A DNA stretch of 45,947 bases from Candidatus Thorarchaeota archaeon (GTDB taxonomy: Archaea > Asgardarchaeota > Thorarchaeia > Thorarchaeales > Thorarchaeaceae). The position numbers and the translations under genes were made by a program. The stretch lies in assembly GCA_048884965.1 (NCBI GenBank), contig JBHLQH010000029.1, forward strand, positions 1-45,947, in the 5' to 3' direction. Of the stretch, positions 5,086 through 22,918 are shown piece after piece. Each line of letters starts with the position of its first letter. Within the stretch, counting starts at the first letter, position 1. The notes under the pieces are model-generated. The model was not told the origin of the DNA and did no database searches. It saw only the letters and a program-made list of their open reading frames with translations.

Positions 5086-5194
5086 GGGTCGGTGGTCTAG
5101 CTTGGCTATGATTCTTGGTTTGGGTTCCTAGCAGCTTAGGTTCCTAGGTCAAGACTCCAAGGGATCCCCGGTTCAAATCCGGGCCGGCCCACCA
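5086..5194 (+). tRNA. tRNA-Pro(UGG) with 31-nt intron at canonical 37/38 (5125..5155), CCA encoded
   Basis: Acceptor GGGTCGG/CCGGCCC; anticodon stem CTTGG/CCAAG with TGG at 5121-5123; T arm CCCGG-TTCAAAT-CCGGG; A-CCA at 5191-5194. BHB central helix TTTG/CAAG. Confidence 0.93.
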
Positions 5195-22089: not shown

Positions 22090-22217
22090 CTAGGACCAAA
22101 TGCAAATCTAAAGTGTTTTGGCTAGTCCGATTAGAGTTGACCAAGTCTTCAAATAGCTCAACGTCACAACCTTTTTATCAGATTCACGTGCAAGACGATT
22201 CCACGAACACATGCCTT

Positions 22218-22325
22218 GGGCCCGTGGCATAGACTGGTTATTGCGCCGCTCTGATAAGGCGGATGTCGCGTGTTCAAATGGTGCCGTGATTTCCACGACA
22301 TCTGAGAGTCACGTCGGGCCCACCA
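22218..22325 (+). tRNA. tRNA-Ile(GAU) with 30-nt non-canonical intron at 59/60 (22279..22308), CCA encoded
   Basis: Acceptor GGGCCCG/CGGGCCC; anticodon arm CCGCT-CT-GAT-AA-GGCGG (GAT 22253-22255); T stem GCGTG/CACGT; removing the intron restores T-loop TTCAAAT; A-CCA at 22322-22325; TTTTTAT upstream at ~22172. Confidence 0.93.
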
Positions 22326-22366
22326 TGCTCATTCTATTTATTACCCCCCATGCCATAGCTTACACT

Positions 22367-22918
22367 ATGAGAGCCCTAGTCGTCTACTTCTCCCAAACTG
22401 GAAATACACGGATACTAGCAGAGAAGATACATGATGTGATTTCAACTCAACTAGAGGCAGATATTGGTATTGTGAGATCTATTGGATTGGATAGGCTAGA
22501 CCAGTACAATGTACTCTTTGTTGGCACACCCTGCCATGATAGCGATTTAGCTCCACCAGTGAAGGGTTTTCTTGATAGACTTCCAGAATCTCCTCGATTC
22601 AAGGTCGCAGGATTCTTCACCCATGCGACCACCATGCCTGATAGTGATCGAAATAAGGAATTGTATGATCAATGGGCAGGTAGATGCATTCCATCCTTTG
22701 AGAATGCATGCAGCCGCAAGAATATCGAGTACTTGGGAACCTTTCACTGTCAAGGAAAAGCAAGTGAACCAATTGAACAATTTATTCATCAGCAAATCAT
22801 AACTGATGAGGATGAGTGGAATCAATATCTTGCGGACCTTCGAACGCATCCAACTGCCAGTGAGATAGAGCATGCTGAGAGATTTGCTTTAGACATCATA
22901 GGCAGGCTGCAACAATGA
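22367..22918 (+). CDS. Flavodoxin-family protein
   Basis: MRALVVYFSQTGNTRILAE FMN-phosphate loop, LFVGTP, FFTH, FHCQG. Start refined because the upstream ORF extension is the tRNA. Confidence 0.9.
   Translation: MRALVVYFSQTGNTRILAEKIHDVISTQLEADIGIVRSIGLDRLDQYNVLFVGTPCHDSDLAPPVKGFLDRLPESPRFKVAGFFTHATTMPDSDRNKELYDQWAGRCIPSFENACSRKNIEYLGTFHCQGKASEPIEQFIHQQIITDEDEWNQYLADLRTHPTASEIEHAERFALDIIGRLQQ

Follow-up and report, generated by a model that had tools for sequence, protein, structure and literature searches.

Evidence for a strict BHB intron at position 59/60 of the tRNA-Ile(GAU) gene in a Thorarchaeota genome

Within the window, by which we mean the whole 45,947-nt stretch of Thorarchaeota DNA that was analysed, an ORF track's extended flavodoxin overlies a region that reads as a tRNA-Ile(GAU) gene interrupted in its T-loop. 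The locus raises the question of whether this region is a working tRNA gene with a removable intron and, if so, where exactly the intron begins and ends. We conclude that 22218–22325 (+) is very probably a functional, apparently sole tRNA-Ile(GAU) gene with a strict BHB intron at 59/60, which is predicted to be removed by EndA and RtcB.

Parsing of the sequence yields a gene of 108 nt before splicing (Table 1). The full cloverleaf that an earlier note had proposed here was recovered in all its elements. The sole non-pair of the D stem is U13–U22, as judged from the ARAGORN cloverleaf of the spliced 78 nt, and the two strands of the T stem are separated by 37 nt in the gene, compared with the 7 nt expected. 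The GAU anticodon, A37, and A73 are the sole grounds on which charging with isoleucine and decoding of AUU and AUC are predicted. Upstream of the gene, AACCTTTTTATC is near-invariant in six genomes of the same genus, with diverging sequence on its flanks, and fits an archaeal BRE/TATA promoter, which we predict to be its function.

Table 1 Coordinates of the tRNA-Ile(GAU) gene, its intron and associated features (window positions unless a genome and contig are named; a slash within a bulge marks the predicted cut).
Feature	Position	Strand	Description
Candidate BRE/TATA-like promoter	22168–22179	+	AACCTTTTTATC, ~40 nt 5' of tRNA position 1
tRNA-Ile(GAU) gene	22218–22325	+	108 nt unspliced
5' exon, nucleotides 1–59	22218–22278	+	acceptor 5' strand through T-loop TTCAAA; 100% identical to positions 1–59 of L005:1485–1562(-)
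Acceptor stem	22218–22224 with 22315–22321	+	7 of 7 Watson-Crick pairs
D arm, then anticodon arm, then 5-nt variable loop	between acceptor and T stem	+	
Anticodon GAT (GAU)	22253–22255	+	in the 7-nt loop CTGATAA
Complete hBHBh' motif	22268–22314	+	T stem (h), 4-bp H, two bulges, intron hairpin (h')
T stem	22268–22272 with 22310–22314	+	GCGTG with CACGT, 5 bp
Central helix H	22273–22276 with 22303–22306	+	TTCA with TGAG, 4 bp, one G-U
3-nt bulges	22277–22279 and 22307–22309	+	AA/T and AG/T, on opposite strands
BHB intron at 59/60	22279–22308	+	30 nt: third base of bulge 1, hairpin, TGAG, first two bases of bulge 2
Outer (intron) hairpin h'	22280–22288 with 22294–22302	+	8 of 9 paired, one C-A mismatch
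Hairpin loop	22289–22293	+	ATTTC
3' exon	22309–22325	+	U60, T stem 3' strand, acceptor 3' strand, A73, CCA
Discriminator A73; encoded CCA	22322; 22323–22325	+	
Flavodoxin gene	22367–22918	+	Pfam Flavodoxin_3; separate from the tRNA
Hairpin apex examples	G005:C14:54015–54049; G069:C331:3568–3602; G113:C60:19204–19238; G176:C44:23726–23761		

Simple tools miss this gene or assign it a wrong 3' boundary. Run with default settings, ARAGORN reported no tRNA anywhere in the window, nor did it recognise one in the 108-nt precursor; after removal of the 30 nt in silico, it returned a full cloverleaf, called tRNA-Ile(gat). The Rfam tRNA model matched 22218–22292 at 29.9 bits, against a gathering score of 29, with a good alignment at positions 1–59 (posterior probabilities ~1) and with the 3' strands of the T and acceptor stems forced onto the intron. 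The expectation that tRNA finders can overlook genes of this type thus holds for this one as far as these simple tools are concerned.

The 30-nt insert and the T arm form the BHB motif, and the helices and bulges that had been put forward for a strict intron at 59/60 parse exactly. Both bulges lie 3' of their own strand of the 4-bp helix; this is the arrangement canonical for archaea, except that the T arm stands in for the anticodon arm. There are two opposite 3-nt bulges, a 4-bp helix between them, and flanking helices of at least 2 bp, as in a strict BHB. Cutting after the second base of each bulge yields the T-loop TTCAAAT, the exact sequence of the orthologue, as had been predicted. A T (U) stands at both junctions, so cuts at 59/60 and at 60/61 give one and the same product; 59/60 is preferred on the BHB rule that the cut follows the second bulge base.

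No single observation speaks more strongly for the intron, and for its precise limits, than the match to an intronless gene of a relative. The 78-nt product spliced in silico is 100% identical, over all 78 nt, to an uninterrupted gene of G003, a genome of the same genus (L005:1485–1562(-)). It is also 85–99% identical to the uninterrupted genes of 29 family genomes, with 97–99% for intronless genes from other genera. The insert is missing from the orthologous gene in G003, G002, and 27 other family genomes, and a homologous 30-nt insert occupies 59/60 in G004, G006, and G005, all of the same genus. G005 has a further insert at 20/21 beside the one at 59/60, and G001, again of the same genus, has inserts at 20/21 and 37/38 and a T-loop with no insert. 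Four states are therefore found within one genus: no intron, 59/60 only, 20/21 plus 59/60, and 20/21 plus 37/38.

A tRNA-Ile(GAU) gene is present in each of the 86 genomes of the family comparison set and is uninterrupted in about 29 of them. The match ends at position 61/62, owing to a T-loop insert, in about 14 of the 86 genomes and at position 60 in three; about 13 have the D-loop split at 20/21, some of them with a T-loop insert as well, and others have splits near positions 13, 37/38, or 46. At least seven insertion sites in this one gene are represented across the family. Two classes can be told apart among the T-loop inserts: a strict 59/60 class, in which UUCA is paired and the bulges are AA/N and NN/U (12 inserts from three genera), and a 58/59 class, which has an enlarged 3' bulge and a central helix formed by G53–C56. 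A closed Thorarchaeota chromosome (G094, CP070658.1) carries two tRNA-Ile(GAU) genes, at C1:454850–454927 and C1:2257084–2257144, one uninterrupted and one with a T-loop insert of the 58/59 type. Partial 3' duplicates of tRNA-Ile(GAU) were also observed, one on L005 (G003:C16) at 1330–1368 (positions 40–78, 100%, 116 nt downstream of the intact gene) and one on L023 (G030:C1) at 2406–2448 (positions 36–78, 91%, ~850 nt downstream of the intact gene); these may be leftover attachment sites of integrated elements.

An alignment of the T arm and intron of the 12 strict 59/60 inserts was used to follow the pairing across genera. In this alignment, 91.2% of cells are paired, compared with 33–48% when the 3' partner is slid by one to three columns, both sides have changed in 10 of the 18 pairs (three in the T stem and seven in the hairpin), and the covariation score was reached by none of 500 shuffles; since the aligned sequences are kin and the source of the structure, these figures overstate independence, and the contrast with the slid control is still large. 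As judged from these sequences, the geometry of the BHB motif covaries in the related introns of all three genera, as expected of a motif maintained by selection. Together with the identity to the G003 gene, this covariation puts the observation well past what chance would give.

Thermodynamics alone does not select the BHB conformer, and this is to be counted against it, together with the G-U pair in the central helix and the C-A mismatch in the hairpin. A fold of the whole precursor gave neither the cloverleaf nor the BHB and was no better than shuffles (z = -1.5); for tRNA precursors, such folding is not expected to be informative. A hairpin variant from a sediment RNA library has the C of its lone C-A mismatch replaced by U, giving a U-A pair. 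Two other features of the intron were considered and rejected. The presence of GUGAU and CUGA might point to a box C/D guide RNA, but 30 nt is too short and the CUGA is largely forced by the pairing with UUCA; the resemblance of the inner stem CGTG/CACG to the T stem was not seen in relatives and is a coincidence.

The best-surviving alternative, which we nonetheless regard as very improbable, is that the intron is real and is cut at another site or in another register, either through a shifted UUC/GAG pairing or through a relaxed 58/59 motif as in other genera. The minimum free energy structure of the T arm plus intron does use a shifted register, on the GAGAG run, at -15.3 kcal/mol against -13.4 kcal/mol for the BHB conformer (lower by 1.9), the 58/59 class of inserts provides a precedent among relatives, and the T at both junctions makes 59/60 and 60/61 equivalent in product. 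However, the TTCAAAT of all intronless orthologues is restored only by a cut at 59/60 (or the equivalent 60/61), the shifted pairing lacks two 3-nt bulges 4 bp apart, and relatives without the GAGAG repeat, which have TGAA, TGAT, or TGGA instead, support only the 59/60 register.

A slightly less probable alternative is that the gene is a tRNA pseudogene, in which the insertion is not removed and AUU/AUC codons are read by another tRNA that escaped detection. The source genome is a MAG of 99 contigs, 95.7% complete and with an estimated contamination of 7.2%. The earlier note had asked for a check on other tRNA-Ile(GAU) genes, and no second tRNA with a GAU anticodon was found in this genome by Rfam (54 matches), by ARAGORN with introns allowed (65 calls), or by BLAST with tRNA-Ile genes of the family. 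Ile(GAU) is likewise missing from the tRNA arrays on C4 and C9, and the sole other Ile-like call, C35:4377–4483, has the anticodon CAU. A permissive scan for GAU stem-loops with any closing 7-mer gave 81 matches, essentially noise, and was replaced by the cross-check of Rfam and ARAGORN together with a stricter scan for T arms. Given the 99 contigs and the contamination estimate, a second copy could still lie on unassembled DNA, and the incompleteness of the MAG speaks to that extent for a pseudogene.

RNA data bear on the same alternative. The sole RNA run with any of this stretch, X20, yielded two short contigs from a related strain, of which one stops at 22279 and the other crosses the intron with two substitutions; there is no spliced joint among them, which would suit a pseudogene, although contigs of this kind cannot show that splicing is absent. 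The DNA runs containing the window sequence are sediment metagenomes by their labels, and some of their contigs match up to 22278/22279 and then continue into an intronless allele or a different T-loop insert. Intronless alleles of the gene thus share the same sediments, which also counts in favour of a pseudogene. Against it stand exons that are 100% identical to a functional-looking intronless orthologue, an insert placed exactly within a strict BHB whose helices covary across genera, the failure of the searches of this genome to find another GAU tRNA, the conserved promoter-like element, and comparable inserts in the apparently single-copy Phe(GAA) and Thr(CGU) tRNAs of the same genome. With no other tRNA-Ile(GAU) detectable, the gene is probably essential, and its intron would then have to be removed.

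It is scarcely credible that the stretch is instead coding, as an N-terminal extension of the flavodoxin ORF 22211–22918: an uninterrupted frame of 235 aa does run from ATG 22211 across the whole tRNA, but the Pfam Flavodoxin_3 domain covers ORF residues 56–225, beginning at profile position 1 three residues past the internal Met at 22367, the 52-residue extension coincides exactly with the tRNA, the DNA is kept in relatives as exons of a tRNA whose introns differ by indels, and the two genes of G005 face opposite ways. Because the domain begins only at residue 56, the extension from 22211 is spurious and ATG 22367 is likely the true start, in agreement with the suggestion that an overextended flavodoxin masks the tRNA. 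In G005 of the same genus (L010, G005:C26), the tRNA-Ile gene adjoins the flavodoxin gene in the opposite orientation, indicating a local inversion of the tRNA gene. A search of genome contigs with the flavodoxin as query confirmed no relative.

The preferred reading remains a functional gene with a strict BHB intron at 59/60, for which we propose the following course of maturation. Transcription would give a precursor of 108 nt plus a leader, with the 30-nt intron between nucleotides 59 and 60. In this precursor, the T-loop bases 54–57 (UUCA) would pair with UGAG at the 3' end of the intron, and the resulting helix would stack between the T stem and the 9-bp intron hairpin, leaving two opposite 3-nt bulges. 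The predicted cuts, each following the second base of a bulge, would be made by EndA, which consists of the catalytic alpha subunit together with another paralogue whose role is probably structural. RtcB would then join the exons, ...GTTCAAA being joined to TCACGTCGGG... at the predicted junction, to produce a normal 75-nt tRNA plus CCA, and would probably circularise the intron.

The genome encodes the machinery that this course calls for. Two proteins, encoded at L031:1219–1779 and L032:1180–1812, contain both EndA Pfam domains (PF01974 and PF02778). The one of 187 aa has its closest match in the heterotetrameric enzyme of Aeropyrum pernix, namely in the catalytic alpha subunit (PDB 3P1Z_B, E = 1.9e-44), and keeps the His of GKDHAPF, which is aligned to an Ala of the variant chain 3AJV_B. 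The paralogue of 211 aa gives a weaker match and, in the one alignment shown, has Thr opposite the His of the M. kandleri chain; from these residues, it is probably the structural (beta-type) subunit. In the N-terminal KP-rich segment of the 187-aa protein, RKPKSPEFD aligns without gaps to A. pernix EKPRGADFE, a segment that may be the L1/CSL with Lys44 reported by Hirata et al. 2011. An RtcB ligase is also encoded (585 bits). According to PMC5829648, Asgard archaea have an (alpha-beta)2 EndA with an L1 loop, and EndA of any type should accept a strict hBHBh' motif. Since one strand of the central helix, the 5' one, is provided by the T-loop, the motif here is strict and broad-specificity cleavage would be unnecessary.

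The gene is not the only one of its kind in this genome. The T-arm scan revealed a tRNA-Phe(GAA) gene at C8:87–192 (+) with a 29-nt strict BHB intron at 59/60, which was missed by Rfam (E <= 0.001) and by ARAGORN -i; apart from it, Phe(GAA) is encoded only in the C9 array. This hidden gene bears out, for this genome, the idea, raised before the present analysis, that apparently missing tRNAs of the lineage may be genes with hidden introns. Inserts of 30 nt at 59/60 were further found in tRNA-Thr(CGU), at C8:51991–52096 (+), whose GAUUUCC loop is the same as that of the Ile intron, and in tRNA-Leu(UAA), at C7:121034–121151 (-). Other interrupted or clustered tRNA genes were observed along the way. 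The window itself contains at 5086–5194 (+) a tRNA-Pro(UGG) gene with a ~31-nt intron near 37/38, called by ARAGORN in intron mode only and unreported by default ARAGORN and by Rfam at the gathering score. A tRNA(CAU) at C7:~115445–115620 (-), with the acceptor stem GCCGCAG/CTGCGGC, has two or more inserts, including one in the T-loop (28.3 bits with the covariance model R1, described below). The tRNA arrays at C4:160883–163299 (~20 genes) and C9:108216–108648 (~6) are mostly intron-free, and the scattered genes are intron-rich.

To survey the phylum, as the earlier note had recommended for Asgard genomes, we used R1, a covariance model of the T arm with the 59/60 BHB that re-finds the window motif at 63.3 bits. 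With 40 candidates scored per genome, R1 matched in at least 33 of the 151 sampled phylum genomes, from at least eight families besides that of the window. Seven of the 11 matches that were fetched have UUCA-AAN...UGAA-ANU inside tRNAs with closing acceptor stems, among them Gly(CCC), Leu(UAG), and Ser(GCU). This census argues that T-loop introns at 59/60 are common in Asgard archaea.

The T-loop introns of Ile, Thr, Ser, Gly, and other tRNAs have in common a hairpin apex, UG-N-UUUCC-A (examples in Table 1). A search of 400 phylum genomes for GTTCRAA-N8-TGNTTTCCA-N7,8-TGRR gave 18 matches in 17 genomes versus one for the reversed control, a count biased by the design of the pattern from observed cases; the matches come from two families and have unrelated self-complementary stems. 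When the apex was left free, a manual count gave ~13 exact and ~10 one-off apices among ~35 hairpin-like matches in the family. The TTTCC core is absent from the 37/38-region introns called by ARAGORN in this genome. GATTTCC occurs three times in the tRNA genes of this genome versus 0.84 expected, which is weak on its own, and the lead rests on the phylum-wide count of 18 versus one, not on this enrichment. It is possible, if rather doubtful, that the 59/60 intron is one of a set of Asgard T-loop introns of ~29–31 nt that are related in sequence, have a 9-bp hairpin and the apex UG-N-UUUCC-A, and are spread over many tRNA genes in at least two families. A loop conserved over diverged stems suggests either that the loop is under selection or that the introns have a common origin of which only the loop is left.

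Introns of this kind are known, and the position 59/60 is explicitly listed among the archaeal non-canonical intron sites (PMC4090602). The non-canonical introns of Crenarchaeota and Thermoproteales (Sugahara et al. 2008; Marck & Grosjean 2003; reviewed in PMC4090602 and PMC4033280) share with the present one the 59/60 site, the strict hBHBh' motif, the length of ~30 nt, a reliance, predicted for the present case, on EndA of the (alpha-beta)2 lineage, and the variation in presence and absence among close relatives. The host, in contrast, is here a mesophilic sediment Thorarchaeota MAG and not a hyperthermophilic crenarchaeon. Thermoproteales are the classic case of tRNAs with several introns and of related introns shared by different tRNAs (PMC4033280). 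In the intron transposition described there (Fujishima et al. 2010, via PMC4033280 and PMC4090602), introns at one position share sequence across tRNA species, as they do here. Unlike in that case, the loop alone is conserved in the Asgard introns, and the stems differ and covary, a pattern no less in keeping with a selected loop than with recent copying.

Novelty, which the earlier note had implied by speaking of uncatalogued introns, does not stand, since non-canonical tRNA introns, T-arm introns, and introns missed by annotators have already been published for Asgard archaea (PMC5829648; PMC11291895; 10.64898/2026.10.13.758758). The note's own proviso, that earlier cataloguing would lower the novelty, applies in large part. 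A survey of four Asgard genomes, including Thorarchaeota SMTZ1-83, reported incomplete tRNA sets and suggested unidentified disrupted genes (PMC5829648). In Atabeyarchaeia and Freyarchaeia, 92–95% of tRNA genes bear introns, often at non-canonical sites (PMC11291895, 2024). Most recently, tRNAscan-SE was found to miss 30% of the inserts in the focal families, T-arm inserts of Asgard archaea were found mostly at canonical BHB motifs with repeated gains, and no general route of copying between tRNA genes was reported (Goswami et al., October 2026 preprint, 10.64898/2026.10.13.758758); Thorarchaeia are not mentioned in its main text. The introns of these three sources and ours agree in the phylum, in non-canonical and multiple introns, in T-arm insertion at canonical BHB motifs, in being missed by annotators, in repeated gain and loss, and in an (alpha-beta)2 EndA with an L1 loop, which for the present genome is a candidate assignment. 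The sources differ in focus, which is on Atabeyarchaeia, Freyarchaeia (Freyrarchaeaceae in the preprint), and Jordiarchaeia, and their text does not describe this gene. The gene is thus a well-supported new instance, in Thorarchaeia, of a known kind of intron, and its novelty is low.

What is known of the mechanism is left unchanged by this finding. For annotation, the gene matters because no other decoder of AUU and AUC could be detected in the genome. Taken together, tRNA-Ile(GAU) and the hidden tRNA-Phe(GAA) argue that the 'missing' tRNAs of Thorarchaeota MAGs are partly artefacts of detection. If the apex family is real, introns would have spread between the T-loops of different tRNAs or the loop would be under selection; a selected loop might, for example, make a protein or RNA contact during pre-tRNA maturation and would not be a mere spacer. 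The well-resolved presence and absence of introns in one essential tRNA gene offers material on how archaeal tRNA introns arrive and are lost.
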